Origin: an uncultured bacterium
GTDB taxonomy: Bacteria; Oederibacteriota; Oederibacteriia; Oederibacteriales; Oederibacteriaceae
Assembly (NCBI GenBank): GCA_965112635.1
Contig: OZ218778.1
Coordinates: 2,784,001 to 2,848,000 of the forward strand
DNA length: 64,000 nucleotides
Reading direction: 5' to 3'
How positions within the stretch are numbered: position 1 is the stretch's first letter; the number at the start of each line of letters is the position of its first letter. This document shows positions 45,820-60,167 of this stretch, piece after piece. The position numbers were made by a program, and so were the translations under genes. The notes beneath the pieces are model-generated. The model did not search any database, was not told where the DNA came from, and saw nothing but the letters and a program-made list of their open reading frames with translations.

Positions 45820-45828
45820 TGGTATAAT
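45820..45828 (+). promoter_or_regulatory. Extended -10 promoter TGnTATAAT
   Basis: TGGTATAAT about 15 nt upstream of the structured leader. Confidence 0.55.
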
Positions 45829-45843
45829 TAACAGAAATTTAAC

Positions 45844-45990
45844 AAAATATCAAAGAACTAGCGAAAAGCCGATTGTGGATGTGAGTCCACGATGGGAGAG
45901 CTATCCGCCTGACACACCCTGAGCGGAATCTTCAAACAGGGCAGGAACTGTCAGACACAGGGGTATACCGAAAGGTTCTTTTTTATTTTT
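45844..45990 (+). ncRNA. Riboswitch-like structured leader RNA, copy 1 (family unassigned)
   Basis: Shares conserved junctions and covarying stems with 59941-60129 (-); ends directly before AGGAGG. Confidence 0.75.
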
Positions 45991-46003
45991 TAGGAGGTGT
46001 CCC

Positions 46004-47994
46004 ATAAGAAGCTTTTGCAATGGAAGATCCATACTAGCTGTCCTGCTAGCTCTGGCTTCCATGCTTTTAGTCACTTCCATGCAAGCCACCTGCACTCGGT
46101 CGGTCTATGTTTCTACCTTTGGCCAGCTGAATACGGCCATCCAAAACATCCAGAGTGGCGACTGTATCTACCTCAACCCGGGCGTCTACCATGTGACGGA
46201 GAACAGCCCGCTCAAGATAACCGGCGTCAATAATATTGTCCTCTCCAGCGCCACAGGCAACCCCGGCAGCGTGACCATCACGGGGGTCGGGTTTTGCGAC
46301 GACGGTTCTGCCGGCGCCTGCTCACCCCATCAGGGTGAGCAGAACAACGATTGCCTGTGGATCGGGTGTTGCTCTGGCAGCTGCAACTCAATCACCATCA
46401 CGGGTATCACCTTTACCGAGGACTGCTATGGCATCAAGGTCACCCCGCCGACCAACGACATCGAAATTCTTAACTGCCGGTTCATCAATTTTGGATACCG
46501 CTGTATTAAAGGAGTGGCCAGTGGTACTAATATTTTTGAAACGAACGGCCTGGTGCAAAACTGTTACTTTGAGGATAACAAGATCCCATCCTCCTGCTGG
46601 AATTCCGGCGGCGATTATATTGCCGGCATGGACATGATGTGGGACAACGGCTGGACCATTGAGGACAATACCTTTGTGAACATCAAAGGCTACGGGGGAG
46701 GCGCCCGGGCGGCTGTTTTTCTCTGGGTGGGATGTAAAAATTGTATTGTCCAAAGGAACAGGATGATCGGTTGCGACCGGGGTGTCGCGTTCGGCAACGC
46801 GAGCGGTTCTTTAAACGGCCAAAACCAGATCGCCCGCAACAACTACATCGTGGCCCCGGCCGATGACGCCATTGAGCTGGAGTCTGTGGACAGCTGCGGG
46901 GTTTACAATAATAGTTGCTATCTGCTGGATACATCCATCCGGGGTATCTATTGCGTCGTGGACAATCCCCATGTGACCAATACCAACATCCAGAACAACA
47001 TGCTGAACAACCTGACCAGCAATCCTGCCTGGACTATCCAGACCACGGGCCTGACCTCGGGGACCGTGAATAACAATGACAAAACCGCCCCTTTATACGA
47101 CTGGGTGGATCCCACCAACGGCAACCTGGATCTCACTTCTTTTGCGTCTGATGCCATCAGCCAGGGTATAAATTTGGCTGCAGTGACCCAGGATATTTAC
47201 CAGCAGCCGCGGCCAAACCCGCCCTGTATCGGCGCCGACGAATATATCCCCCCACTCCGACCCAGACTTTTACCCCTTCTTCGACCTCGACCATTGGCCC
47301 GTCCGCTACCACTACATCGACCCCTTCGGTCACCCTGACCCCGTCTCTGAGCGGCACTTCCACTTCGACCACTACCATTACCCTGACCTCTTCGCAAACC
47401 GTCACCCCTTCCTTGACCGGAACCTCCACGCTGACCCTGACTTCTTCCCAGACGGCTACCATTACAGAGACCTCATCGCAAACTTCGACACCTAGTCAGA
47501 CCCTAACCTCCTCTCAGACCACCACCCCTACGGTGACCGGATCCCAGACCGTGACCTCTTCTCAAACTCTGACTTCCTCGCAGACGGCCACCATCACCAA
47601 TACTCCTTACTTCACCCCGATCCCCTCCTCCACGCCGACCCCCAGCGGCCAACTGGCCATACTCCAGCACATCCCCTATCCTGACCCGTTGAAGCAGGGC
47701 AGCCTGGTCACGATATACCTTGAAATGTCAGATGTGCCCGACAGCATGTCCTTGACCCTGTATACGGTCTCAATGCGGGAGATCCGCAAGAGCACGACCG
47801 TCTCCCTCAATAGCTCCACGGGCTTGCAGGTCGTTTACGAGGGCGAAGTGGCTAACTATGCCTGCACGGTCGCCCTCGACCTGAAAGACGACCAGAACCA
47901 GGACCTGGCCAATGGACTTTACTATTACCAGATACAGGTGACCAAAGGCCCCAAGAAGGCCAAGGCCATAGGTAAATTAGTGGTCACCCGATAG
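46004..47994 (+). pseudogene. Secreted right-handed beta-helix protein with Thr linker and sorting domain, split by a frameshift at a C6 tract
   Basis: Track ORFs 46061-47338 and 47413-47994 join into one frame if one C is added at 47248-47253. Probable ATA start at 46004. Architecture matches the intact neighbour 48051-50096. Confidence 0.8.
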
Positions 47995-48050: not shown

Positions 48051-50096
48051 TTGAACTTATCTCTGCGGATTCTCCTGTGCTTGGTTCTTTTTTCCACCCT
48101 TAGCCACCTTCACGCCCAAACCTTTCCCCCTTTTGCCCCGGCCCTGCCGGCGCCGTTACCACCCATCATCAACGTAAACAACATTAACGCCCTATACAAT
48201 GCGGTTAATACTGCGGCTTCTGGGACCACCATTTTAGTAGCCGACGGGATTTATAATCTAAATCCTAACTTGGGCGGCTTCATGGGTGCTCTGGATTTTA
48301 GAACACCTAATGTCACACTGCGCGGCGCTTCCGGGAACCGTGAAAAATGCATTATCACTGGAACCACCATGACGGATACCTCCGCTGCCAACACCGGAAT
48401 AGCCATTAAGATAGAGGCCAACAATATAACCATCGCCAACGTTACCGTCTGCAATGTGTACTTTCATGACATTCAATTTCCGGACGCTGTATCTGCCAAT
48501 AACGCCGATATCTACAACTGCTGGCTCAAGGACTCGGGCGAGATGCACATCAAAAGTTCCCAGGCCTGTACCGGCGTTTATTGCGACAACAATATCGTGG
48601 AGTGGAGCCGTCTCTCCTACACCACGACCGCCGCTACCACCCCTTATGGCAGTTGCTCGACATTCCCCTGCTATTACTATGACGCCATAGATGTCCATGC
48701 CGGCAACAATTGGATCGTCAGGCACAACTGGTTCGTGGACGAATACCCGGTTCCGGGTGACTGGGCAAATATGGATGGCATGACCAATCCGGCTATTCTT
48801 TTTTGGAACGGCTGTGAGAATCCGCTCGTGGACAGCAATGTTTTCATCAACTGCAGTTCAGGGGTCGCCTTCGGGCTCAACCAAAATAGTGGCTGCTTTA
48901 CCGGGGGCGGTTCCTACCGCACTACTGACGATTGCCATGGAGGGATCATCCGCAATAATTTCTTCTACCGTGACCCCGCCCTGACCGGGGACGTTGCCAT
49001 TTATGTATGCGGCGCCCCCAACGTTACTGTGGTGGGCAATACCATTATCCAGCCCGATGAGGGCACCACAGCCCATGGAGGCGACGATATGGAAACTAAT
49101 TACAACAACACTAAAAACGCTTATATTGTCAACAATCTGTGCTGTCTTACTCCCGTTGTCAACCGGAGTGGCTGTGCTAATTGCACGGAATTTAACAATA
49201 TAACCGGAGCCACCCTCGGTTGGCTCGTCAATGGGGGTGCCAATATCACCATAACGGGAGATTGCCATCTGGTTGCCTCAGATACCCTGGCCATTGACCA
49301 GGGATTCCCCCTGGCGGGATGGGACGACTTTGATATTTTTGGGAATTCCCGGCCACAAACCTGCTCCTGTGCCTGTTATGATATCGGTGCGAATGAGTAT
49401 ATTTGCGGCACCAGCACCCCGACCTATACGCGCACAATGACCTATACGCCAACAATGACCTCCACGCCTGCCCCGACATCCACAGCCACATTGACGCCAG
49501 CACCACCCACGCAAACGTCCACGATCACCCTGACGTCTTCACAAACATGTACGGTAAGCCAAACCTATACGGCTACAGAGACAGGGACGCCGGTCACCGG
49601 GACACCTACATCCACATCCACGGCCAGCGGTACGCCGACCTTTACATCGACAATCACCCCGACCCAACTCCCCTTCACGGCAACCCCTCTTTCCAGCAGC
49701 ACTCCCACAACGACCTTCACACCGACTTTTACACCAACAGCCTATATGAGCTTGAGTATTATCAAACTGCTGACCTACCCCAATCCGGTGAAGAACCAGA
49801 ACAGCCTGAACTTTTATATCAATCTCAGTGACATTCCGGATCGGATCGACATCAAGGTTTATACGACAGCCGCGCGATTAATCAGGGTCATGAACTCGGC
49901 GCAGACCAAGGCGCCCAACGGGGTTACTCTGGTAGAAGATATCTACAATGAGTGTACGTTTGCCTATTCCATTCCCTACGACCTTACAGATTGGGAAGGA
50001 AACTGGCTTGCTGACGGTATGTATTATTTCGTGGTCGAAGCCAGGAAGAGCGACACCACTGTGCGGGGCATTGGACGCTTTACCATACTGAAGTAG
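48051..50096 (+). CDS. Secreted right-handed beta-helix (pectin-lyase-like) protein with Thr linker and sorting domain
   Basis: Signal peptide, GTTILVADGIY, Asn-ladder repeats, DIGANEY, T/P linker, YPNP…LADGMYYF…GRFTILK. Confidence 0.85.
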   Translation: MNLSLRILLCLVLFSTLSHLHAQTFPPFAPALPAPLPPIINVNNINALYNAVNTAASGTTILVADGIYNLNPNLGGFMGALDFRTPNVTLRGASGNREKCIITGTTMTDTSAANTGIAIKIEANNITIANVTVCNVYFHDIQFPDAVSANNADIYNCWLKDSGEMHIKSSQACTGVYCDNNIVEWSRLSYTTTAATTPYGSCSTFPCYYYDAIDVHAGNNWIVRHNWFVDEYPVPGDWANMDGMTNPAILFWNGCENPLVDSNVFINCSSGVAFGLNQNSGCFTGGGSYRTTDDCHGGIIRNNFFYRDPALTGDVAIYVCGAPNVTVVGNTIIQPDEGTTAHGGDDMETNYNNTKNAYIVNNLCCLTPVVNRSGCANCTEFNNITGATLGWLVNGGANITITGDCHLVASDTLAIDQGFPLAGWDDFDIFGNSRPQTCSCACYDIGANEYICGTSTPTYTRTMTYTPTMTSTPAPTSTATLTPAPPTQTSTITLTSSQTCTVSQTYTATETGTPVTGTPTSTSTASGTPTFTSTITPTQLPFTATPLSSSTPTTTFTPTFTPTAYMSLSIIKLLTYPNPVKNQNSLNFYINLSDIPDRIDIKVYTTAARLIRVMNSAQTKAPNGVTLVEDIYNECTFAYSIPYDLTDWEGNWLADGMYYFVVEARKSDTTVRGIGRFTILK

Positions 50097-50177: not shown

Positions 50178-51425
50178 TTACAAACCAATAAATTTGCCTG
50201 AAAAAGTTTCATGCTGAAGGAACGCTGTTTTTTCTACTTCGAAAACCCTTGCTAGTCGTTTCAGATAAATCGGATTTTCCAGGGTTTGTTTCTCCGGTGA
50301 ATCCGTGATTTTGCCGACCGGCTTGCCTTGGCAGTGGGTCATCTTGATGACGACCTGGATGGGCTGCAGCCCCATGTCATTGGTCAGGTTGGTGCCGATA
50401 CCGAAAGAGCAGTGTAACTTGTGATGGAATTTCTTGTAAATGCCAATTGCCCTGGGCACGTCCAACCCGTCGCTAAAGACCGCGGTCTTGGTTCTAGGAT
50501 CAATGCCCAGCTTGCGGTAATGCCTGATGATCTTAGTAGCCCAGGAAAACGGGTCGCCGGAATCCTGCCTGAGCCCGTCAAACCGTCTGGCCAGTTCCCC
50601 GTCAAAATCCCCCAGGAACGCATCCACCCCGATGACATCGGTCAGGGCGATCCCCAGCTTGCCCTGGTATTCCTGCAGCCAGGTCTTCAGGGCGAACTTC
50701 TGGCTCTGCCTGATCCCCACCAGGGCCTGGGGCGCTTCTAAAAATTCATGCGCCATGGTCCCCACCGGCCTCAGGCCATATCGCCAAGCCAGCAGGATAT
50801 TGCTCGTGCCGCTGAAATTCCGGGGTAGTTCCTTGGCCAGGGTTTCCACGACGCAGGCCTGCCACGCCCGGCTGAACCTCCGGCGCGTGCCGAATTCGCT
50901 GAATTTGAAATCTTCGGCCTTGAGCGCCTGGATCATTTTGACCTTGTTGGCCAGTCTTTTCTCCCCCTCCCGCCAAAATCCTTTTTCCTTTTTTCGGCTC
51001 AGGGACAACAGGTGTTCGTAATAACAGCGTATCACCGCGTCCAGCACAGGGACTTCGAACAAAATGGTGCGCAGCCAAGGGCCTTGGATCAATATCCCTA
51101 AGCCTCCGTCTTTGTCCTGGCTGATCCGGATATGCCGGCATTTGAGCTTGAACCCCCTGAGGAAAGCAAGGAAATCATCACGGAAAAAACCGAGGCTTTT
51201 GAGGTGGTTGATTTCGGCATCCGTGAGGGTCAGCCCGCAAAGCTTTTCGATCTCGCGGCGGACCGCTCCGACGATGGGAGAAAAATTCACGCCCGGTGTA
51301 CGGCAGCGGAAAGCGAACCCCGCGTCCACTTCGGGGAAACGGCGGTAAACCACCTGCATCATGGTGAACTTATAAAGGTCCGTGTCCAGCAAGGAATCTT
51401 TGAGGGCGGGCAGAGCGGATTTCAT
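50178..51425 (-). CDS. pncB: Nicotinate phosphoribosyltransferase
   Basis: ATG 51425; SLLDTDLYKFTM, EFGTRRR, GTMAHE, RQDSGDP, FSDGL, FGIGT. Confidence 0.95.
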   Translation of the reverse strand: MKSALPALKDSLLDTDLYKFTMMQVVYRRFPEVDAGFAFRCRTPGVNFSPIVGAVRREIEKLCGLTLTDAEINHLKSLGFFRDDFLAFLRGFKLKCRHIRISQDKDGGLGILIQGPWLRTILFEVPVLDAVIRCYYEHLLSLSRKKEKGFWREGEKRLANKVKMIQALKAEDFKFSEFGTRRRFSRAWQACVVETLAKELPRNFSGTSNILLAWRYGLRPVGTMAHEFLEAPQALVGIRQSQKFALKTWLQEYQGKLGIALTDVIGVDAFLGDFDGELARRFDGLRQDSGDPFSWATKIIRHYRKLGIDPRTKTAVFSDGLDVPRAIGIYKKFHHKLHCSFGIGTNLTNDMGLQPIQVVIKMTHCQGKPVGKITDSPEKQTLENPIYLKRLARVFEVEKTAFLQHETFSGKFIGL

Positions 51426-51426
51426 C

Positions 51427-52071
51427 TCAAGCCTGGCTGAGTTCTGAGGAACTCTGGACGATCCGGGCGCCCCCTGACCGCATCTCTTCGATTGCTTTTT
51501 GGGTCGTATCCGGGCTGATGCCGCGGCAGGCGGCCAGGTTGACAACAACGCTGAACCCGGCTTTTAAAAGCTGGAGGACGGTGTTCTTGACGCAATAGTC
51601 CGTGGCCAGCCCTCCCGCAAGAATGGCCTTGATCCCTTTGATCTTTAGGAATTCGATCACTCCGGTGGACTGGCGGTCCTTGAGGTCATGAAAACAGGCC
51701 CCGTAGGGGTGCATATGGTTTTCCACCCCTTTATAAACCATAAAATCATACTCCTCAGGGGCGGGCAGCCCGTCCAAAAGTTCATGGCCCCTGGTCCCCA
51801 CTTCGCAGTGTCTATTCCAGCGGATATCGGAGTTGGGTAATCCCACCTGGGAATATTGGGGCTTGTCCGGCGTGGCCACCCAGACCGCGTTGGGGTTATG
51901 GCAGTCTTTGGAAGCCACCCTCAGGCTGGCCAAATGGGCTTGCCGGTTGAGCTCTTCTCCGATCTTTTCCCCTTCCGGTACCGGTAGTTCATCCGGGCAG
52001 AGCGGGGTAAAACCTTTTTGGCAGTCCACGTCAAAAGCTGCTGTGGTGCGCTTGTCGATTTTAATGGCCAT
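51427..52071 (-). CDS. pncA: Nicotinamidase
   Basis: DVDCQKGF, KDCH, WNRHC, KG, GLATDYCV; adjacent to pncB. Confidence 0.92.
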   Translation of the reverse strand: MAIKIDKRTTAAFDVDCQKGFTPLCPDELPVPEGEKIGEELNRQAHLASLRVASKDCHNPNAVWVATPDKPQYSQVGLPNSDIRWNRHCEVGTRGHELLDGLPAPEEYDFMVYKGVENHMHPYGACFHDLKDRQSTGVIEFLKIKGIKAILAGGLATDYCVKNTVLQLLKAGFSVVVNLAACRGISPDTTQKAIEEMRSGGARIVQSSSELSQA

Positions 52072-52146
52072 GGTGCTCCCTCAACTTCTTAAAATAAGGA
52101 CATTCTCTAACATCGGGATAAATCTCGGGGAACTGCCGGTAAAGAA

Positions 52147-53214
52147 CTAATTATTGGGGAGGTTTTTTTTCTTTTCCAGTTGATCCTTGATAGCACTGAT
52201 AACCGCGTTGGCTTGATGGGTAACCCTCGGTGGCAGCACTTCATGGGTCAAAGGCACCGGCATTTCAGGACCATCCTCGCTCATCACGAAAATGACCCCC
52301 AAAGAACCCAGGATATTACCAAACTGATTTTTTACTGGGAAAACCCTGACTCGTAACCAGGAAAAAACAGCTTTGTCGCTTTTAATATTGAGGTCAAAGG
52401 GTTCCACGGGAAGGTCCAAACCATCTCTCAAAGCCGGCAGCAGAGGTTCTAACACTTCCACATCCTTGATCTCACGATCCAAAATATCCCTGCGCTTGGT
52501 GCCGAAAACAGCCTCGGCATCCTTGTTGAAATATCGGACCCTGAAATTGCTGTCCATCATGACCAGGGCCACGGGTATGGCGCCCAGAACACTCTCAAAG
52601 AACTGCGACATGGCCTGCATGTCCTCCGAGGTCTTTTTGAGCTTGTTCGTCAAAGCGCCTTTGCTGGCCTCCAAGGTCTTGCGCCGCACGATTTCCACCT
52701 GGGTTTCCTGGACCAGGATGCTGGAATGCAGGCTGAGGATGAGGATAAAGGGCAGTTCCAGCAAGTCCTGGGGTTTGACATAATCAAACCCTTGGGGAGT
52801 ATAGATCTTGCAGGCCAAGTACACCCCGGCCACGACGACCGAAGTCAGGCAGGTGTACCAGAATTTTTGGGCCACCGCCGCGATGAAAATGGAAAGGAAA
52901 ATGGCCGCCAGAAGAAAACTCTGCACCTGGTTCATCACCCAGAGGGACAGAAGGATAAAACTAAGGTCGAAAAGGAACATGATATAGCAGAATTTCAGGC
53001 CTTCGAAAAACCGGGACGGCAGCAGCGCCGTCACGATCTGGCTCCCGAGATAAACGACTGCCAGTACTGCCGCGACCCAGAGAATGGCCTGTCCCTCTTG
53101 CCAACGGATGAAAAAATCCACGGCCAGCCACAGCAGCACCACCCAGCGGATGGCGAAAAATCTGCTCTTTCTTTGGAGGTCTACGACTTCTCCTTCAGTT
53201 TTCTCCTCTGACAT
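52147..53214 (-). CDS. Polytopic membrane protein with coiled coil and PAS domain
   Basis: About six TM helices, then SVLGAIPVALVMMD…YFNKDAEAVFG…PVKNQFGNILG; no output domain. Confidence 0.75.
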   Translation of the reverse strand: MSEEKTEGEVVDLQRKSRFFAIRWVVLLWLAVDFFIRWQEGQAILWVAAVLAVVYLGSQIVTALLPSRFFEGLKFCYIMFLFDLSFILLSLWVMNQVQSFLLAAIFLSIFIAAVAQKFWYTCLTSVVVAGVYLACKIYTPQGFDYVKPQDLLELPFILILSLHSSILVQETQVEIVRRKTLEASKGALTNKLKKTSEDMQAMSQFFESVLGAIPVALVMMDSNFRVRYFNKDAEAVFGTKRRDILDREIKDVEVLEPLLPALRDGLDLPVEPFDLNIKSDKAVFSWLRVRVFPVKNQFGNILGSLGVIFVMSEDGPEMPVPLTHEVLPPRVTHQANAVISAIKDQLEKKKNLPNN

Positions 53215-53307
53215 TTCCGCTCTCCCTTTTCTCTAGGCCTGGAAATATTCAACCCAGTTAATAATAGGTGATTTATCAGGGTTTGTCACGCCTGGGGGTA
53301 TCACCGG

Positions 53308-53976
53308 TCAAACGCGTCCCCCGAAGATCCCGCGGCCGATCCGGATTACATTGGCTCCCTCGGCCAAAGCCGCCTCAAAATCATCGGTCATTCCCATGGA
53401 GAGATAAGGAAGGGACAAGCCAAGATTCCGTTCGATTTTTTCTTTTAATTCGCGCATTTGCCGGAAATAAGGCCTGGCCGACTCAGGGTTTCCCGTCAAA
53501 GGAGCCACGGTCATTAGCCCCGTAAAAGATAGGTATTTAAAGCCAAGGGCTTGGCGTAGCAACTCCTGGGCCTGGTCGGGCCTGACCCCGCTTTTGCTCT
53601 GCTCGCCGGCAATATTGATTTCCAAAAGACAAACGAGCTTTTTCCCCAGCACTTCGGCTTCCCTCTCCAGCATCTCGGCTAGCCTCAGGCTGTCCACGGA
53701 CTCAATCCAGTCAAAAAGTTTGACCGCCATTTTCACCTTATTGGTCTGCAAATGGCCGATCAAGTGCTTTTCCACGCTGGCCCCGGCCAGCAGATCGAAC
53801 TTTTGCCTGGCCTCCTGGACCCTGTTTTCCCCGACCGCCGTGACTCCCGCCTCAAGGGCTTCTTTGATCCTCTCCGCGGGAACGGTCTTGGTCACAGCCA
53901 CCAGCTTGACCTCCCGGATGGTGCCCTTTTTTATCTTTGCCTGGAGAACGGACAGGTTCTCTTTAATCTGGCTCAT
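53308..53976 (-). CDS. yggS: PLP homeostasis protein
   Basis: LVAVTKT, GENRVQE, HLIGHLQTNK, LSMGM, RIGRGIFG; ATG 53976. Confidence 0.95.
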   Translation of the reverse strand: MSQIKENLSVLQAKIKKGTIREVKLVAVTKTVPAERIKEALEAGVTAVGENRVQEARQKFDLLAGASVEKHLIGHLQTNKVKMAVKLFDWIESVDSLRLAEMLEREAEVLGKKLVCLLEINIAGEQSKSGVRPDQAQELLRQALGFKYLSFTGLMTVAPLTGNPESARPYFRQMRELKEKIERNLGLSLPYLSMGMTDDFEAALAEGANVIRIGRGIFGGRV

Positions 53977-54776
53977 AACAGCCCCGCGTAAGCGATCATG
54001 CGGCCGGCCTTGCCCTGGTCCCGGCGGTGGGAAAAGAAAAGGTCTTTCCTGCAGCTCGTGCACAACCCCGTGCTGAAAATTCTTTCCTCTTTGACTGACA
54101 TATCCCGGAGCTGCCATACGTTGGCCAGGATCAGGTCCAGCCGGGGATTAACGTAAGAGGGATGGGTGAACAAATTGTCCGCGTAGGGGAAATGCTTTTG
54201 GAAAAGGGCCACGACTTCCGGGCCGACCTGCAGACAGCATTTCCCGATGCAGGGACCCAAACCGACCAGGCAGTCGCTGAATTTGGTGAAAAAATGCTCT
54301 TTCATAGCCAGTAAAGCCTGCTGGCCAACCTGCGCCAGGGTACCCCGCCAGCCGGCGTGGACTTGGGCCAGGGCTTTGTGCACGGGGTCGTAGATAGTGA
54401 TGGGCAAACAGTCGGCAATGGACACCGTGAGCAACACACCCCTTGTTTGGGTGATAAGCGCGTCCCCTGTGCCGGCGTTAATCGTTTCGCCCCGCACGGA
54501 AAGCACTTTGCAGCCGTGGACCTGGTCCATCTTGACCAACCGCTCCGGCGGATACCCGATGGCCTTGGCTAGCCTTAGCCGGTTCTCTTCCACGGACTTT
54601 GTCTCTGCCGGGTTGTCGGAAACTTTAAAGGACAGGTTCAGGGAATCATAAGGAGCCTGGCTCACCCCTCCCACCCGCGTGGTATATCCATGGACCAGGC
54701 CGGGAACCTGGGAAAGTTCGGGCAGGTTGACGAGCGTCAACCCGTTGGCCTGCTCCAGCTCAAAAGCCGTCAACAC
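53973..54776 (-). CDS. pgeF: PgeF/YfiH polyphenol-oxidase-like protein
   Basis: TTRVGGVS, QVHG, ADC, HAGWRG, CTSC..FFSHR. Confidence 0.93.
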   Translation of the reverse strand: MLTAFELEQANGLTLVNLPELSQVPGLVHGYTTRVGGVSQAPYDSLNLSFKVSDNPAETKSVEENRLRLAKAIGYPPERLVKMDQVHGCKVLSVRGETINAGTGDALITQTRGVLLTVSIADCLPITIYDPVHKALAQVHAGWRGTLAQVGQQALLAMKEHFFTKFSDCLVGLGPCIGKCCLQVGPEVVALFQKHFPYADNLFTHPSYVNPRLDLILANVWQLRDMSVKEERIFSTGLCTSCRKDLFFSHRRDQGKAGRMIAYAGLL

Positions 54777-54791
54777 CCAGCCTCCTTTTGG

Positions 54792-55895
54792 TCAGTGGCC
54801 GTCAGGACAGGTGGAAGAGGGGGTGCATTGGGTTTTGGCCGGATGCCCAAAACCAGTGGACTGGATGACCCCCATCATGTTGATGATGGTGTTGATATCC
54901 CCGGTATCGCTGGAATCGTGCTTGGCGTGCTTGCAATGGTCGTTGAGCTTGGCGTACACCCTTGCTTTTTCTTTTTCCAGCCATTCCTGCTGCTCCTGTG
55001 TGGCAGTTGTTATTTTGGCCTTGAGCCCTTCAATCTGGTCCGCGCGCTGCTGGTTCACGCTGTAACTATCCGCGATGGCCTGCTTGATGGTGTCATTGAG
55101 TTCCCGCTGGTGGGTCAAAAGGTCCATGTCCTCTTCCGTGATATCGGTGTCCGGCAGGATGTTCCATTTCTTCTCTTCCTCCTGGTCTATCCTGGCCGTC
55201 ATTAACCGGGAAAGGTCCTTGTAGGACTGGGGATTGTTCTTGTCCATTTTCTGGATCTCGTCCTTGATCCAGTCCCCGCTTCCCTTGTGCTGCTCAGGGA
55301 TGAGGTCCTTGACCGCTCCGGCTACATCCTTTAGCTTCATCACCTTGGACCCCGCAGCGCCTACGATAAGTTCGCCTCCGGCCTCGCCTCCGGATTTAGC
55401 CGTATCCAGGGCGTCATAGGTCACATAGACCAGCCGGCAAAAGGCTTTGACCAGGTTCTTTTTGATGCCCTGGGACAACGCGTTCTGGAAATCCTTCATC
55501 TGGAGCCGCTTTTGGCGGTCTGTCTCCATGAGCGCCGAAAGGTAGGCTATCTCCTCGTTATATCCCCTGATGTCAATGCCGTTTTCCGCGTACTGCTGCG
55601 CGTCCCAACTCCGCTCGCCCACAGGTATCCTGTCATCTATGTCTGAATATTTTATCCACTCTTTCTCAAAAACCTCCTTGTCCACGCACTGGTCCTTGTC
55701 CAGGATCGCAAAACCGCTCCCTGTAGAGTTTTCCGCTCCCTGGGTTTCATCCGGTTGGTAGGGCCCGTTGTCCAATTGTTCGTTGGTGACCTTAGCCGGG
55801 GACTGTCCGGGATTTGAATCCTCGATCTGCTGGGCCATAGCCGTCGTCCCTGCCCAAAACCCTACTGCCATAAAAACAAATAAAGTCCTTTTCAT
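54792..55895 (-). CDS. Hypothetical exported helical protein
   Basis: GGAGG RBS, signal peptide, acidic coiled-coil body, terminal CTPSSTCPDGH. Confidence 0.75.
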   Translation of the reverse strand: MKRTLFVFMAVGFWAGTTAMAQQIEDSNPGQSPAKVTNEQLDNGPYQPDETQGAENSTGSGFAILDKDQCVDKEVFEKEWIKYSDIDDRIPVGERSWDAQQYAENGIDIRGYNEEIAYLSALMETDRQKRLQMKDFQNALSQGIKKNLVKAFCRLVYVTYDALDTAKSGGEAGGELIVGAAGSKVMKLKDVAGAVKDLIPEQHKGSGDWIKDEIQKMDKNNPQSYKDLSRLMTARIDQEEEKKWNILPDTDITEEDMDLLTHQRELNDTIKQAIADSYSVNQQRADQIEGLKAKITTATQEQQEWLEKEKARVYAKLNDHCKHAKHDSSDTGDINTIINMMGVIQSTGFGHPAKTQCTPSSTCPDGH

Positions 55896-56080
55896 AGGAT
55901 CCTCCCTAAAAAAGAATAGTCATCTAAATCATTACCACAAAAACTGTTTTTCCTCCACCAGCCAGTATTACTGCTTTCCCTTCGGAAAAAACCCAGATTT
56001 GGCCTTCAATCGCCTTTGTTATGTACGTTTCCGCTCGAAGGCGATCGCGTCAAACAGTCCGTTTGACGGGACATTAAATT

Positions 56081-57397
56081 CTAAACCTTGAACATTGAAC
56101 CTTTTTTACCCTTCATCTGCTTCATCATTTTTTGGGCCTCAAAAAACTGCTTGAGCAGGCGGTTGACCTCCTCGACGCTGGTGCCCGAACCAAGGGCGAT
56201 GCGGCTGCGCCGCCTGCCGTTGATCTGGCTGGGATTGTTCCTTTCGAATGGCGTCATGGATAGGATCATGGCCTCGGTTTTTTTCATCTGTTTCTCGGCC
56301 TGCGCCTCGTCCACCTGGGGCATGGCCTGGCCCATTCCGGGTATCATAGATACCAGGTCCGACAAAGGCCCCATTTTTTTGATCATCCGGATCTGTTTCA
56401 TGAAATCGTCCAGGGTAAAAGCGTCCTTCCTGAACTTTTGTTCCAGATCCTCGATCTCCTGCTGCTGGACCGTTTCCTGGACTTTTTCCACCAGGGACAG
56501 GACATCTCCCCTGTTCAAAATGCGGCCCGCCAATCGGTCCGGATAAAAAGGTTCCAGGTTGTCCGCCTTTTCGCCCATTCCCGCGAACCAGATGGGCACT
56601 TGGCAGGTGGTGGTCACGGAAAGGGCGGCGCCGCCCTTGCTGTCGCCGTCCAGTTTGGTGAGGATGACGCCGTCGATGCCCACCTTTTCCTTGAAAACCT
56701 TGGCCTGGTTGACCGCGTCCTGCCCGGTCATGGCATCTAAGACCAAAATGACGTAGTGGGGCTTGAGTTTTTCCTTAGCCTCCACGAGCTCAGCCATCAG
56801 TGCTTCGTCCACATGCAGCCTGCCGGCAGTGTCCAGGATCAGGATTTCCGCGGCTTTTTTAGCGGCCTCTTCCCTGGCCAGGGCTGCCACCCCGACGGGC
56901 GTGCTGGCCAAACAGGGGGTAAAAGGGATGTCCATCTGCTTGCCCAAGATCTCCAGCTGGTCCTGGGCCGCGGGCCTTTGCAGGTCCATGGAAAGCAAAA
57001 GCACGGTCTTACCTTTTTTGTTCTTGTAGTAGTGGGCCAGCTTGGCGCAGGTCGTGGTCTTGCCGCTGCCCTGAAGACCGACCAGCATGAAAACGGTGGG
57101 AGGCTGGGAGGCCAGATAAATCTCGGCCTTATGCTTGCCGAGGAGTTCGACGATCTCGTCATGGACGATCTTGAGGAATTGCTGTCCGGGGGTCAGGCTG
57201 TCCCAGACCGCCTGGCCTAGGGCTTTTTGCTTGACCCGTTCCACGAACTCCTTGACCACGGAGTAGTGGACGTCGGCTTCCAAAAGCGCCAGACGTACGT
57301 CCCTGAGGGCGTCCTTGATGTTCTTTTCGCTTATCTTGCCCTGGCCTGAAAGGTTTTTCAGAAGGCTCTGGAATCGCTGGCTCAGGACCTCGAACAT
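56081..57397 (-). CDS. ffh: Signal recognition particle protein
   Basis: ALLEADV, GLQGSGKTT, DTAGR, TKLDGD, M-domain RRSRIALGSG. Confidence 0.98.
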   Translation of the reverse strand: MFEVLSQRFQSLLKNLSGQGKISEKNIKDALRDVRLALLEADVHYSVVKEFVERVKQKALGQAVWDSLTPGQQFLKIVHDEIVELLGKHKAEIYLASQPPTVFMLVGLQGSGKTTTCAKLAHYYKNKKGKTVLLLSMDLQRPAAQDQLEILGKQMDIPFTPCLASTPVGVAALAREEAAKKAAEILILDTAGRLHVDEALMAELVEAKEKLKPHYVILVLDAMTGQDAVNQAKVFKEKVGIDGVILTKLDGDSKGGAALSVTTTCQVPIWFAGMGEKADNLEPFYPDRLAGRILNRGDVLSLVEKVQETVQQQEIEDLEQKFRKDAFTLDDFMKQIRMIKKMGPLSDLVSMIPGMGQAMPQVDEAQAEKQMKKTEAMILSMTPFERNNPSQINGRRRSRIALGSGTSVEEVNRLLKQFFEAQKMMKQMKGKKGSMFKV

Positions 57398-57400
57398 GGG

Positions 57401-58057
57401 CTACCTGCCCCAGGCCTGCTGGCCGCACTTCCTGAGGCCGTCGATGGTGCGCCGCATGTTCTTTTGGGTGAAAAGAAAATGGCCCACCACAAAAACGTTG
57501 GCCCCCGCTTCAGCGGTACATTGGGCTGTTTCATAATTAATGCCGCCGTCCACTTCGATATCCCCGGGATAGATGGCGCGCAGTTGTTTGATCTTGGGCA
57601 GGACGGCCTTGATGAATTTTTGGCCGCCAAACCCTGGTTCTACGGTCATGACCATGACCTGGTCCGCCAGGGGAAGCCATTTTTTTATGGCGGATAAAGG
57701 CGCCTTAGGTCGCAGGGAAAGCCCGGCCTTGGCTCCTGTGGCCTTGATGGCTCTTAAGGTGGCCCCGACAGAGGAGCAGGCCTCGGCGTGCACGATCATA
57801 TGCGACGCACCGGCCGCCCTGAAACGCCTGACATACCGGATGGGTTCCTGGATCATCAGGTGCACGTCCAGCGGCCTGACGGCGTATTTTTTGAGGGAAG
57901 CCAGCACGGGCATGCCGATGGTAATGTTGGGCACGAACAGCCCGTCCATCACGTCCACATGGATGTAATCAGCCCCGGCTTTTTCCGCCCTCCATACTTC
58001 CTGTCCCAGGCGGCTGAAATCAGAGGCCAGGATAGACGCGGCGACTTTGATCTTCAA
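57401..58057 (-). CDS. rpe: Ribulose-phosphate 3-epimerase
   Basis: HVDVMDG.FVPN, DVHLM, MTVEPGFGGQ, VDGG. Confidence 0.96.
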   Translation of the reverse strand: MKIKVAASILASDFSRLGQEVWRAEKAGADYIHVDVMDGLFVPNITIGMPVLASLKKYAVRPLDVHLMIQEPIRYVRRFRAAGASHMIVHAEACSSVGATLRAIKATGAKAGLSLRPKAPLSAIKKWLPLADQVMVMTVEPGFGGQKFIKAVLPKIKQLRAIYPGDIEVDGGINYETAQCTAEAGANVFVVGHFLFTQKNMRRTIDGLRKCGQQAWGR

Positions 58058-58141: not shown

Positions 58142-59917
58142 TTAGAAATTTTTGCCGAATAGTTTGGTGATAAAAAAGTCCCTGTCGCCGCAGGTCTTTT
58201 CCACCTGCGGGTCTTCAAAAGCCTTGGCAATAAGCTCCCTTACATGTTCGGGATTTCTGGTATATTTTAGGATGTTTTCCTTGGCGATCTCCGGCTCATA
58301 AAGGGCCACATGCATGAGGTTGAGCCCCACGGTGAACTCGATGCTCTGGAACATGCAATAGCGCAGTAGAATACCCACCTTTCTTTTGGATAACCTGTAA
58401 GGCGGGGTCAGGCCGTTGGCCATGCTGAAAAAGAAATCCATGTAGTCCTTGACCGCCTCTTCCCTGCTGGCGCCGTCCGCCATATCCGAAGACACGGCCA
58501 TGGTAAATTTCTTTTCCGCCCCCGTCCATTTGACCTGGGTTTTCTTTTCTATCCTGCCGGCGTATTCGCCGATAAAAGTGCCCACGTTCATATTTCCGCG
58601 GTAGTCAAAAAGGTCGTCCTTGCTCAAGTACTGGCCGCAGGCCCTCAGAACCAATATCTCCACCGGGGTAAGAGAAATTTTAGGGCCCTTGAGGGGGGAA
58701 TCCCCGCTGACAAAGGATATGACGAATCGGTCGTCAAAAAATTCCACGTAATTACGTACCGGTTCTATGAGAATGGGGGGCACGATGAAATTGCCGTAAT
58801 CGTCCTTGGGAAAGACATTGATATGGATGGCGCCGATCTTTTCAATGGCTGCCACGAGGTGCATGGGCGTCACCAATCTGTCCTTGGGTGTTCCGTCAAA
58901 ACCTTTCCACTGGTCCGCGACCAGGACACGGGACGCGCTATAAGGCATCTTGTTCTCGTTGGCTTCCGCGGCGCGGACTACAAAAGACGCCACCGTGTCG
59001 GCATCGATCCTGATGGTGTCGATGACCTGGGGGTCGAATACAGTCGTGGCCTCTGAACCGGAGGCCAGTTTTTCCAGGTCTTCCAGGCAGCGCTTCACCT
59101 CTTTGAACTTGGACTCAATGTTCTGGCCTGCTTTGACCAGCTCCTGGCCTGTGGCCTCCAGCTGGCTGCCCAAAGAAGAAACGGAATTGATGAGCGTCGG
59201 CAGTTTATCCCCAAAGGCATTCCTAACTTTTAATTCGGCGGCAGAGGGGTCGCCAGCTTGGCCGGCCAGATCGCTGAACTTTTTGAGCATTTCCACATTG
59301 AATTTCAGCCCCCGCAAGAGCTGTTCATCCCGCACTGAGGCAAAGCCGGCCACAGGTCCGGCTTCCAGGCCAGCCAGTTGTTCTTTGAAAGCGGCGGCCA
59401 TGGTTTCCAGCCGTTCTTTGACCTTTTCCTTCATCTGGCCCGCGCCCAAGGGAGCAGCGGGCTTGGGCCGGCGCCGGTTCTGCCGGGGGTCCAACCCAAC
59501 GACCTCGCCCCGGGCAATGGCAAAGACGCGGTCTTCCATGTCCAGGATCGGGGCTGCCCAGGCGGGCCTTTTCTTCTTTTCCTCGCGGGCATTGACCAGT
59601 AATTCATACATATTGGGCGACATGAGGTCGACCTCAAAAGATTTGCCGTTTTGGTTCACCTTAATCTTGGAGCCAAAGGCACCGGTGGACAGGAAGATCC
59701 ATTGGGCATCGTTGAGATCAGGGAGTTTTTGGGTCAGAAGCCATTTTTGCAGTTGGGCGAAAGCAGCCCTGAGCTTGATGGCTTTGTTCTGGTCGTCGTC
59801 GGAATGTTTGGAGGGTGCGGCGTACACGGCCAGGGCGTCCTGCACCGTTTTGACCATCTCCGGGTCCGCGCCGGCTATCACTTCTTCAAAAGCGTTCAGT
59901 CCTTTTTTATCTAACAC
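58142..59917 (-). CDS. Hypothetical cytoplasmic protein with central coiled coil
   Basis: 591-aa ORF, GTG start after a purine-rich RBS, no recognised motif; preceded by RNA element copy 2. Confidence 0.8.
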   Translation of the reverse strand: MLDKKGLNAFEEVIAGADPEMVKTVQDALAVYAAPSKHSDDDQNKAIKLRAAFAQLQKWLLTQKLPDLNDAQWIFLSTGAFGSKIKVNQNGKSFEVDLMSPNMYELLVNAREEKKKRPAWAAPILDMEDRVFAIARGEVVGLDPRQNRRRPKPAAPLGAGQMKEKVKERLETMAAAFKEQLAGLEAGPVAGFASVRDEQLLRGLKFNVEMLKKFSDLAGQAGDPSAAELKVRNAFGDKLPTLINSVSSLGSQLEATGQELVKAGQNIESKFKEVKRCLEDLEKLASGSEATTVFDPQVIDTIRIDADTVASFVVRAAEANENKMPYSASRVLVADQWKGFDGTPKDRLVTPMHLVAAIEKIGAIHINVFPKDDYGNFIVPPILIEPVRNYVEFFDDRFVISFVSGDSPLKGPKISLTPVEILVLRACGQYLSKDDLFDYRGNMNVGTFIGEYAGRIEKKTQVKWTGAEKKFTMAVSSDMADGASREEAVKDYMDFFFSMANGLTPPYRLSKRKVGILLRYCMFQSIEFTVGLNLMHVALYEPEIAKENILKYTRNPEHVRELIAKAFEDPQVEKTCGDRDFFITKLFGKNF

Positions 59918-59940: not shown

Positions 59941-60129
59941 AAAAAATAAAAAAAGAACATTTCGGTATGCTCCTTGTTCCTTAAACGGCGTTGTTTTACC
60001 GGAGACCTGAGAACTTCCCCGCAACCCGTTCTTTAAGCTGAAAAAGCTTTGTGGCTTTTTTCAGCAGGAGGTTAGCTTTCCCACCCAGACTTTCATCTGA
60101 GCCGGCTTTTCGCTTGTTCTTTCTATTTT
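59941..60129 (-). ncRNA. Riboswitch-like structured leader RNA, copy 2 (family unassigned)
   Basis: Minus strand reads AAAAUAGAAAGAACAAGCGAAAAGCCG-GCUCAGAU GAAA GUCUGGGU-GGGAAAGCUA…GGAGCAUACCGAAAUGUUCUUUUUUUAUUUU, homologous to copy 1. Confidence 0.75.
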
Positions 60130-60137
60130 CCCGGCCG

Positions 60138-60167
60138 ATTCTAAAAATGATTGACCGGGTGTTTCAA
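60138..60167 (-). promoter_or_regulatory. Candidate sigma70 promoter for the copy-2 leader
   Basis: Minus strand TTGAAA-N18-TAGAAT ending about 8 nt before the element. Confidence 0.45.

Follow-up and report, generated by a model that had tools for sequence, protein, structure and literature searches.

The closest described relatives of the element reported here are the class I riboswitches for cyclic di-guanosine monophosphate (c-di-GMP), known as c-di-GMP-I or GEMM-I (Rfam family RF01051), and residue numbers below are those of the Vibrio cholerae Vc2 aptamer. Passages of PMC3764141 give G20 in junction J1/2, A47 in J2/3 and C92 in J3/1 as the contacts of c-di-GMP, and a portion of PMC11705072 names the C13-G94 and G14-C93 pairs of helix P1; according to the same parts of these two sources, A48 pairs with U90 and is a key ligand-recognition residue, A49 makes an A-minor interaction with C22-G45, and A23, A25, G42 and C44 are highly conserved in the class, with C44 and G83 joined in an interhelical pair. 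We analyzed a window of 64,000 nucleotides (nt), bases 2784001-2848000 of the single-contig 2.88 Mb genome of an uncultured bacterium, which carries two copies of a structured leader RNA; the original prediction, made from the sequence alone, had proposed that they are a new riboswitch-like family that is present twice. We conclude, with a probability of roughly 0.78, that the leaders are a lineage-specific, strongly diverged variant of the class I c-di-GMP riboswitch (GEMM-I, RF01051) and probably an OFF switch. The element is no new class; it is a lineage-restricted c-di-GMP-I variant that is invisible to the curated model.

Two leaders in the window and ten in the genome

Copies 1 and 2 lie where they had been predicted, and both the sequence and the alignment bear out a common scaffold with covarying stems. 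The 5′ half of this scaffold consists in both copies of an A-rich run, AAAGAAC, one variable nucleotide (N), AGCGAAAAGCCG, a stem of 8-9 base pairs (bp) on each side of a GNRA loop, and GGGARAGCUA-NCC, and the 3′ half of ACA(A)GGRGYAUACCGAAA-K-GUUCUUUUUU (K, then GUUCUU, then a long U-run). The P3 arm is variable (~50 nt in copy 1 and ~90 nt in copy 2), and the aligned copies have a mean column identity of 72%, a 40-nt difference in length notwithstanding. The features of the two copies are as follows; the helices of copy 1 are placed by its sequence and by the joint alignment with canonical riboswitches described below, and the −10-like element was read from the sequence.

45851-45984, plus strand: copy 1, variant c-di-GMP-I aptamer (140.4 bits with model R1 and 84.6 bits with model R2, both described below)
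45853-45858 with 45975-45980, plus strand: copy 1, outer P1
C45862/G45863 with C45969/G45970, plus strand: copy 1, inner P1
45864-45868, plus strand: copy 1, J1/2, AAAAG, in which G45868 is at the place of G20 in Vibrio Vc2 according to the joint alignment
45869-45896, plus strand: copy 1, P2, with its GUGA loop at 45881-45884
45897-45899, plus strand: copy 1, J2/3, A-G-A, at the places of A47, A48 and A49, position 48 being G here
45899-45966, plus strand: copy 1, P3
45967-45970, plus strand: copy 1, A-C-C-G, in which C45968 is at the place of C92, and C45969-G45863 and G45970-C45862 pair like C93-G14 and G94-C13
45979-45991, plus strand: copy 1, U-run UUUUUUAUUUUUU, which begins within the 3′ strand of P1 and is a candidate termination site
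45820-45828, plus strand: copy 1, putative extended −10-like element TGGTATAAT, ~23 nt before P1
59949-60123, minus strand: copy 2, variant c-di-GMP-I aptamer with a long P3 insert (R1 116.4 bits, R2 76.2 bits)
60106 and 59965, minus strand: copy 2, the places of G20 and C92, respectively
60116-60121 with 59953-59958, minus strand: copy 2, outer P1, followed by the U-run
60138-60167, minus strand: copy 2, promoter-like site TTGAAA-18-TAGAAT directly upstream (a consensus match only, 10/12)

Each copy lies between a promoter-like site and a gene and has the orientation of that gene, as the proposed riboswitch-type 5′ leader should be; the consensus promoter scan requires a −35 hexamer, and the extended −10-like element of copy 1 is therefore unlisted by it. 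Both copies fold better than their shuffles (z of −2.8 and −3.1). An exact 12-mer core occurs in the window only at copies 1 and 2; when up to 2 mismatches are allowed there are 7 matches in the window where 6.8 are expected, and since this is close to the chance expectation only the two exact matches count. A two-part pattern is found at 4 places in the genome; reversed, it is found at 0. The P1 and P2 pairings originally drawn are correct, and P2 differs between the copies at several pairs with pairing kept; the P3 base drawn for them (CCUG/CAGG in copy 1 and CUCCU/AGGAG in copy 2) can be formed in both copies but is not the register that is kept across the 13 members aligned below.

A covariance model built from four near-identical main copies (R1, which included the AGC/GCU helix discussed below) finds ten places in the genome with E-values from 4.6e-34 to 6.9e-5, so the element is not present twice but ten times; a compact copy (L019, genome 215367-215475) is 109 nt long. 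Each of the own copies (10/10) immediately precedes an open reading frame (ORF), in the sense orientation and behind −10-like sequences. In the phylum set (99 genomes, among which the order of the source genome is represented by the source genome alone) R1 finds four more places, spread over three genomes that all belong to one other genus (g7). A covariance-model search of the genome and its relatives, which had been suggested along with the prediction, thus adds to the family, with ten own and four g7 places, and at the same time takes away its standing as a new family through the links to canonical c-di-GMP-I riboswitches given in the next section. A loose pattern gave three matches in two other genomes of the phylum, none of which forms the hairpin, and these were treated as chance. 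A broad pattern, run on one genome per species, matched at least 119 stretches, and among the 80 loci listed there is 1 true member (L084), which is identical to a g7 element and sits in a metagenome-assembled genome labelled Candidatus Firestonebacteria; a stricter scan of metagenome contigs gave 3 loci, of which 2 are true members, both of the g7 type.

Thirteen variant sequences were aligned to R1 (alignment A5), leaving out two weak R1 matches in which the motif is not visible by eye (L029 and L030, E 1.7e-4 and 7.3e-4) and L027, which is identical to L026. On this alignment a GEMM-I-type structure has 29 pairs, with 89.6% of the cells paired, and the covariation of the stems that had been noticed between the first two copies extends to 17 of these 29 pairs, which are changed on both sides across the 13 members. 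Among 500 shuffles the observed values were reached by 0 on four of five measures and by 8 on the fifth, and controls with slid partners were 36-52% paired. The three helices of the junction are found in order, as P1 (with the inner pairs C13-G94 and G14-C93, 96.2% paired), P2/P1b and P3/P2. The base of P3, the helix that decides between the GEMM-type and the AGC/GCU readings, pairs A-G-C-U with R-G-C-(A)-U and CC with GG and is 95.8% paired; across the 13 members the CC-GG base is followed by a bulge of 3-4 nt and then by a separate distal stem. The alignments were fitted to their own models and the sequences are related, so these pair counts lean towards the structure.

A 5′ AGC/GCU helix given by RNAalifold was dropped, since its middle pair is broken in 5/13 members and the competing GCU-RGC(A)U pairing is 95.8% formed. 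This helix is intact in the eight U-run members, and the changes at it in g7 are compensatory and not in one register; it may be an alternative pairing of the apo state.

Ten copies in one genome, and a P1 that with its A-run and U-run flanks amounts to a terminal inverted repeat, could also be taken for a repeated mobile element (a miniature inverted-repeat transposable element, MITE) or for a protein-binding leader, and in either case for no small-molecule sensor. However, the copies are 10/10 sense-oriented in 5′ leaders (target-site duplications were not searched for), the differences between them are compensatory with the junctions kept, homologues stand before other genes in other genera, and the element is homologous to a validated riboswitch class, all of which make such an origin very improbable.

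Relationship to c-di-GMP-I riboswitches and the ligand

A scan of the window against Rfam at the gathering score (for RF01051 an operational threshold and not a structural feature) gave no match, and the connection to c-di-GMP-I comes through a diverged member elsewhere in the genome. This member, L022 (genome 991756-991851), was found by R1 at E 6.9e-8 and matches RF01051 over the full model with 26.1 bits, the best such match genome-wide and still below the cut-off of 35 bits; the other RF01051 matches in the genome, at 18.5, 14.4 and 13.4 bits, are all weak. Scanning both window copies against Rfam, the first check proposed for them, returned nothing relevant for the copies themselves, and it was L022 that led to c-di-GMP-I. 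A further member, L024, matches c-di-GMP-I-GGC (RF03167) with 17.9 bits (E 5), below that family's cut-off of 59 bits. The place at genome 1326412-1326499 (minus strand), which RF01051 matches with 18.5 bits and E 0.45, is reported by neither R1 nor R2, and may be a chance match or another diverged aptamer.

Canonical c-di-GMP-I riboswitches over the cut-off are present in 10 of the 99 phylum genomes, all in its three nearest families, those that come first in the list behind the source genome itself (f2, f3 and f4), g7 included, and 26 c-di-GMP-I loci of related genomes served as the canonical test set. Two of these 26 loci are matched by R1 (E 0.0051 and 0.038), each at the place that Rfam defines. 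A second covariance model (R2), built from the 13 A5 variants only with the GEMM-I-type structure imposed, matched 8/26 at E<0.01 and 10/26 at E<0.05, the best with 40.8 bits and E 4.3e-10, and over the phylum it recovered the 10 own and the 4 g7 places of R1, with one canonical riboswitch as the sole extra. R2 includes two intermediate copies, so the homology is a chain of similarity in which each link is significant. Because of the L022 intermediate (26.1 bits), the reciprocal model matches and the retention of the named ligand-contact positions, the leaders are not the new family that had been suggested; the echo of c-di-GMP-I that had been noticed in them was, by the L022 score and the reciprocal matches, the right lead. 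The prediction had seen no GGCAAA..GACGCAAAG in the two copies because the base of P2, to which it belongs, has been remodelled in this lineage.

Vc2 positions were assigned through a joint alignment of the 13 variants with 10 canonical relatives, which are only those of the 26 loci that R2 matched at E<=0.05. G20, A47, A49, U90 and C92 are kept in 13/13 variants; the C13-G94 and G14-C93 pairs and the A after them are kept as well, and C22-G45 is kept as C-G in 11 and U-G in 2 of the 13. The first junction A after P2 is A in 13/13, whereas the RF03167 consensus has G. At 21-46 the pair is flipped to C-G in 11/13; L021, L022 and all of the relatives (10/10) have the canonical G-C. Every variant (13/13) carries G where C44 would be (G45894 in copy 1), and every variant (13/13) has a C (C45958 in copy 1) but lacks G in the P3 bulge on the 3′ strand, where the canonical relatives have C at 44 in 10/10 and G in the P3 bulge in 10/10; the interhelical C44-G83 pair appears to have been swapped to a G in P2 and a C in the P3 bulge. 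In open-access literature text, a 2013 survey was the only result of a search that joined GEMM-I variants with C44 and G83. All members (13/13) have a GNRA loop on P2, and a receptor-like CCUAAA..UAUGG is present in the P3 of L022 only. In in-vitro selection, GUGA or GCGA loops are paired with CU:AG and GUAA with CC:GG in P3, which seemed to suit the leaders; nearly all members carry CCU at this place, however, and we make no claim of a tetraloop-receptor match.

The following points weigh against the assignment to c-di-GMP-I, as do the observations on P1, on the terminator scans and on one paralogue that are given in the next section. When Rfam was scanned at E<=10 with stretches of 131-321 nt around copy 1, copy 2 and the compact L019, only unrelated families at chance level were returned, and the RF01051 cut-off of 35 bits is reached by 0/10 own copies. 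R2 left 16 of the 26 canonical loci unmatched at E<=1, and the link to c-di-GMP-I depends on the intermediates and on our own models. The 13 sequences are not independent, since the own copies include two pairs of paralogues and two of the g7 sequences are almost identical. Position 48 is G in 7/13 members and A in 6/13, copy 2 among them, as compared with A in 10/10 canonical relatives. Finally, the P2 internal loop (A23-A25/G42-C44) is absent; its 3′ side is reduced to one G in 13/13 and its 5′ side to one G opposite this, except that L021 and L022, as read by eye, have GA there.

We expect c-di-GMP to be the ligand because the three defining contacts are unchanged and the genome has 11 matches to GGDEF over the cut-off. 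The suggestion in the original prediction of a strongly variant, possibly second-messenger, riboswitch is supported, a second messenger being the best guess for the ligand. The changes at position 48 and beside G20 may leave room for an altered affinity or ligand choice. An aptamer descended from c-di-GMP-I that senses another ligand (3′,3′-cyclic GMP-AMP (3′,3′-cGAMP) or linear pGpG), or c-di-GMP at a very different affinity, would fit the remodelled surroundings of the pocket (the flipped 21-46 pair, G48 and the lost P2 internal loop), and rare c-di-GMP-I variants with few changes are described as sensing c-AMP-GMP in a part of PMC7266159. In the leaders A48, one of the key recognition residues, is replaced by G in 7/13, the pair beside G20 is flipped in 11/13, and separate variant families are kept by Rfam within the same clan. 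A changed ligand nonetheless seems unlikely to us, because G20, A47 and C92 are unchanged in 13/13, members with A48 and with G48 precede the same kinds of genes, L021 and L022, which have the canonical 21-46 pair, otherwise share the variant features, and the cell has c-di-GMP synthases; the known cGAMP variants, moreover, change position 20. We are similarly doubtful that the leaders are a distinct riboswitch which combines a ligand choice or affinity retuned by its changes (the flipped 21-46 pair, G48, the lost P2 loop and the apparently swapped tertiary pair) with a ligand-locked P1 that is itself the terminator and with a cargo set like that of type IX secretion, in a phylum that has been little studied; if this were true, the aptamer would need no separate expression platform.

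Expression platform and direction of switching

For the c-di-GMP-I variant favored here we propose that c-di-GMP made by the cell's GGDEF enzymes would bind the junction and lock P1. In the two window copies and six others the ligand-locked P1, running into U, would be a terminator hairpin, with less read-through at high c-di-GMP; in L023, L024 and L025 the bound fold would hide an AAGGGG ribosome-binding site (RBS) together with the start codon. With either design, termination at the U-run or a hidden start, the element would switch secreted and surface proteins OFF.

A run of at least 6 U directly follows the 3′ strand of P1 in 8 of the 13 members, namely in the five own copies that are nearly identical to one another and in three sequences of g7; such a run is thus found in two distant lineages and in 0/10 of the aligned canonical relatives. 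At the g7 type loci (L026, L027, L031, L028 and L152) the promoter, of the type TTGAC(G/T)-17-TAGA(A/G)T, adjoins P1, and since transcription would then start at P1 the g7 U-run cannot extend P1 by pairing with an upstream A-run, as the U-runs of the window copies could. There is no other hairpin between P1 and the RBS. In the three members of the second design an in-frame GTG or ATG directly follows ACCG, and the AAGGGG of P3 lies 8-9 nt before it. These members with a start codon after ACCG (the L023-L025 set) are located as follows.

Genome 2658137-2658241, minus strand
Genome 2731534-2731632, plus strand
Genome 1816746-1816846, plus strand

The observations announced above as adverse are these. 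Simple terminator scans of the regions of both window copies found none. P1 is A/U-rich, with 2 G-C pairs among 6, and is thus a weak terminator stem, and in thermodynamic folding it forms in calculations that have no term for the ligand. The copy in front of a 940-amino-acid (aa) paralogue of the copy 1 target (L017, 2722994-2723048, minus strand) has no RBS after the element, and there is an in-frame TTG inside its P3 with GGGAG 5 nt upstream; reading from this TTG gives a full signal peptide and makes the U-run coding, and the TTG is the likely start. The energies of GEMM-constrained and free folds were uninformative on switching.

The same fold could instead turn the genes ON when the ligand binds, or the U-run could be no terminator and control purely translational, by way of a U-rich standby site or of anti-Shine-Dalgarno sequences in P3 (CCUCC/CCGCC). 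Such arrangements would sit well with a P1 that is weak as a terminator stem and is predicted to form without ligand, with the RBS of copy 1 directly after the U-run, with pyrimidine runs in P3 that are complementary to AGGAGG, and with a paralogue that may be translated through its U-run. They sit less well with the start codon and AAGGGG inside the aptamer in three copies, which favor OFF on binding, with a g7 U-run that cannot be a P1 extension when transcription starts at P1, and with the lack of an alternative hairpin between P1 and the RBS, and we consider them possible but well short of probable. The spacers of the two copies that precede STAS genes are ~130-140 nt long.

Target genes and comparison with described systems

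The sites and genes that follow the two window copies are these.

45992-45997, plus strand: AGGAGG, RBS of the copy 1 target, followed by 6 nt and an ATA at 46004 that is the likely start
46061-47338, plus strand: copy 1 target, a secreted beta-helix-type protein of 425 aa when counted from ATG, with 54% identity to the 940-aa paralogue
48051-50096, plus strand: second downstream gene, 681 aa, whose N-terminal part aligns to the same beta-helix region and whose C-terminal ~100 aa are common to other targets
58142-59917, minus strand: copy 2 target, 591 aa, with no family match and no visible signal peptide

The copy 1 target has no in-frame ATG, GTG or TTG before 46061, and translation from 46004 yields a normal signal peptide; the gene either starts at a rare ATA codon or has a wrong base in the assembled sequence. 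The 425-aa gene is followed by a gene for a 193-aa protein and then by that for the 681-aa protein, whose product matches the C-terminal part of PorU weakly (E 1.2e-4). The 940-aa paralogue, which as noted above has its own copy of the element, has Pfam matches to Beta_helix and CBM_11. The idea that the two copies control two secreted beta-helix proteins thus holds for copy 1 in that it precedes beta-helix-type proteins (425 and 681 aa) and fails for copy 2, whose 591-aa protein is not a beta-helix protein. Downstream of the copy 2 target, at 50178-58057 on the minus strand, lie ordinary genes, namely the housekeeping rpe and ffh (SRP54) and those for a Cu-oxidase_4 family protein, an alanine-racemase-N-domain protein, a PAS protein, an isochorismatase-family protein and a nicotinate phosphoribosyltransferase.

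Other own copies precede a 912-aa protein and its split paralogue of 221 + 693 aa, two STAS-domain proteins (one copy each), and two proteins without a family match, one of at least ~2000 aa (its end lies beyond the 6 kb examined) and one of 259 aa. The split paralogue (L185, 212780-215163, plus strand) lies behind element L020 as two ORFs of 221 and 693 aa, where the 912-aa paralogue is intact; it could have a frameshift, be a pseudogene or have been assembled wrongly. A domain of ~100 aa is shared at the C-terminus, behind long Thr/Ser/Pro-rich linkers, by the products of window genes 47413-47994 and 48051-50096 and of L183, L184 and L185; the domain of the two window proteins has a faint similarity to the C-terminal part of PorU (E ~1e-4, far under the cut-off), and most of the proteins that share it have no Pfam match at all. 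Behind one member lies a gene for a PorV/PorQ-family outer-membrane protein (L190, 1816833-1817768, plus strand; NF033709, 157.8 bits with a cut-off of 90), which hints at type IX-like secretion under c-di-GMP control. A search of open-access text for 'c-di-GMP riboswitch' together with 'type IX secretion' found no paper. The g7 elements precede GAF-PAS sensor proteins of ~345 aa that have no output domain. A varied and surface-biased gene set is a known trait of the GEMM motif according to a part of PMC7266159.

If the leaders are c-di-GMP-I variants, the standard model of the class has a blind spot, since a genome with GGDEF genes and without an Rfam-detectable riboswitch has ten copies, and in phyla with little sampling the counts of c-di-GMP regulons may be too low. 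The targets, which include beta-helix/CBM proteins, the PorU-like C-terminal domain, a PorV/PorQ family member and STAS proteins, would link c-di-GMP to secretion. The apparent C44-G83 swap, the flipped neighboring pair in the pocket and the G at 48 are natural tests of the structure.

Among the described systems, the c-di-GMP-II riboswitch (RF01786) shares with the leaders the presumed ligand and the short word ACCGA; it differs in that it was matched in none of the Rfam scans made here, the fold of the leaders being the GEMM-I three-way junction, for which the class II pseudoknot is not needed. The c-di-GMP-I variant families and the c-AMP-GMP (GEMM-Ib) riboswitches of clan CL00126, RF03167 (c-di-GMP-I-GGC) among them, are, like the leaders, derived forms of the GEMM-I scaffold, but they keep the canonical P2 base and the leaders do not. 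The HMP-PP (thiS) riboswitch resembles them in its very compact build, in that aptamer and terminator hairpin are one piece of RNA that is followed by a U-run, as described in a portion of PMC6478431; according to the same portion its bound fold disrupts the terminator (ON), whereas here the bound P1 would be the terminator (OFF), and its fold and ligand are unrelated to those of the leaders. With c-di-GMP-I itself (RF01051; Vibrio cholerae Vc2, 3MXH, as set out in parts of PMC11705072 and PMC3764141) the leaders have in common the order and type of the helices, a J1/2 that ends in G20, the A-N-A of J2/3, C92 followed by the C-G and G-C pairs of P1 and by a bulged A, the GNRA loop on P2, the bulge in the 3′ strand of P3, and a place in the 5′ leaders of varied and largely surface-related genes; the extra nucleotide before U90 is also carried by canonical relatives of the same phylum. 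They differ from it in a P2 loop reduced to G opposite G, in the 21-46 pair (flipped in 11/13) and G48 (7/13), in the G at the place of C44 with a C in the P3 bulge, in that most members are without a recognizable 11-nt receptor, and in a P1 that is fused to the U-run or an RBS that lies inside the aptamer. This fusion, and the start codon right after the ligand-contact C, would be very compact expression platforms.

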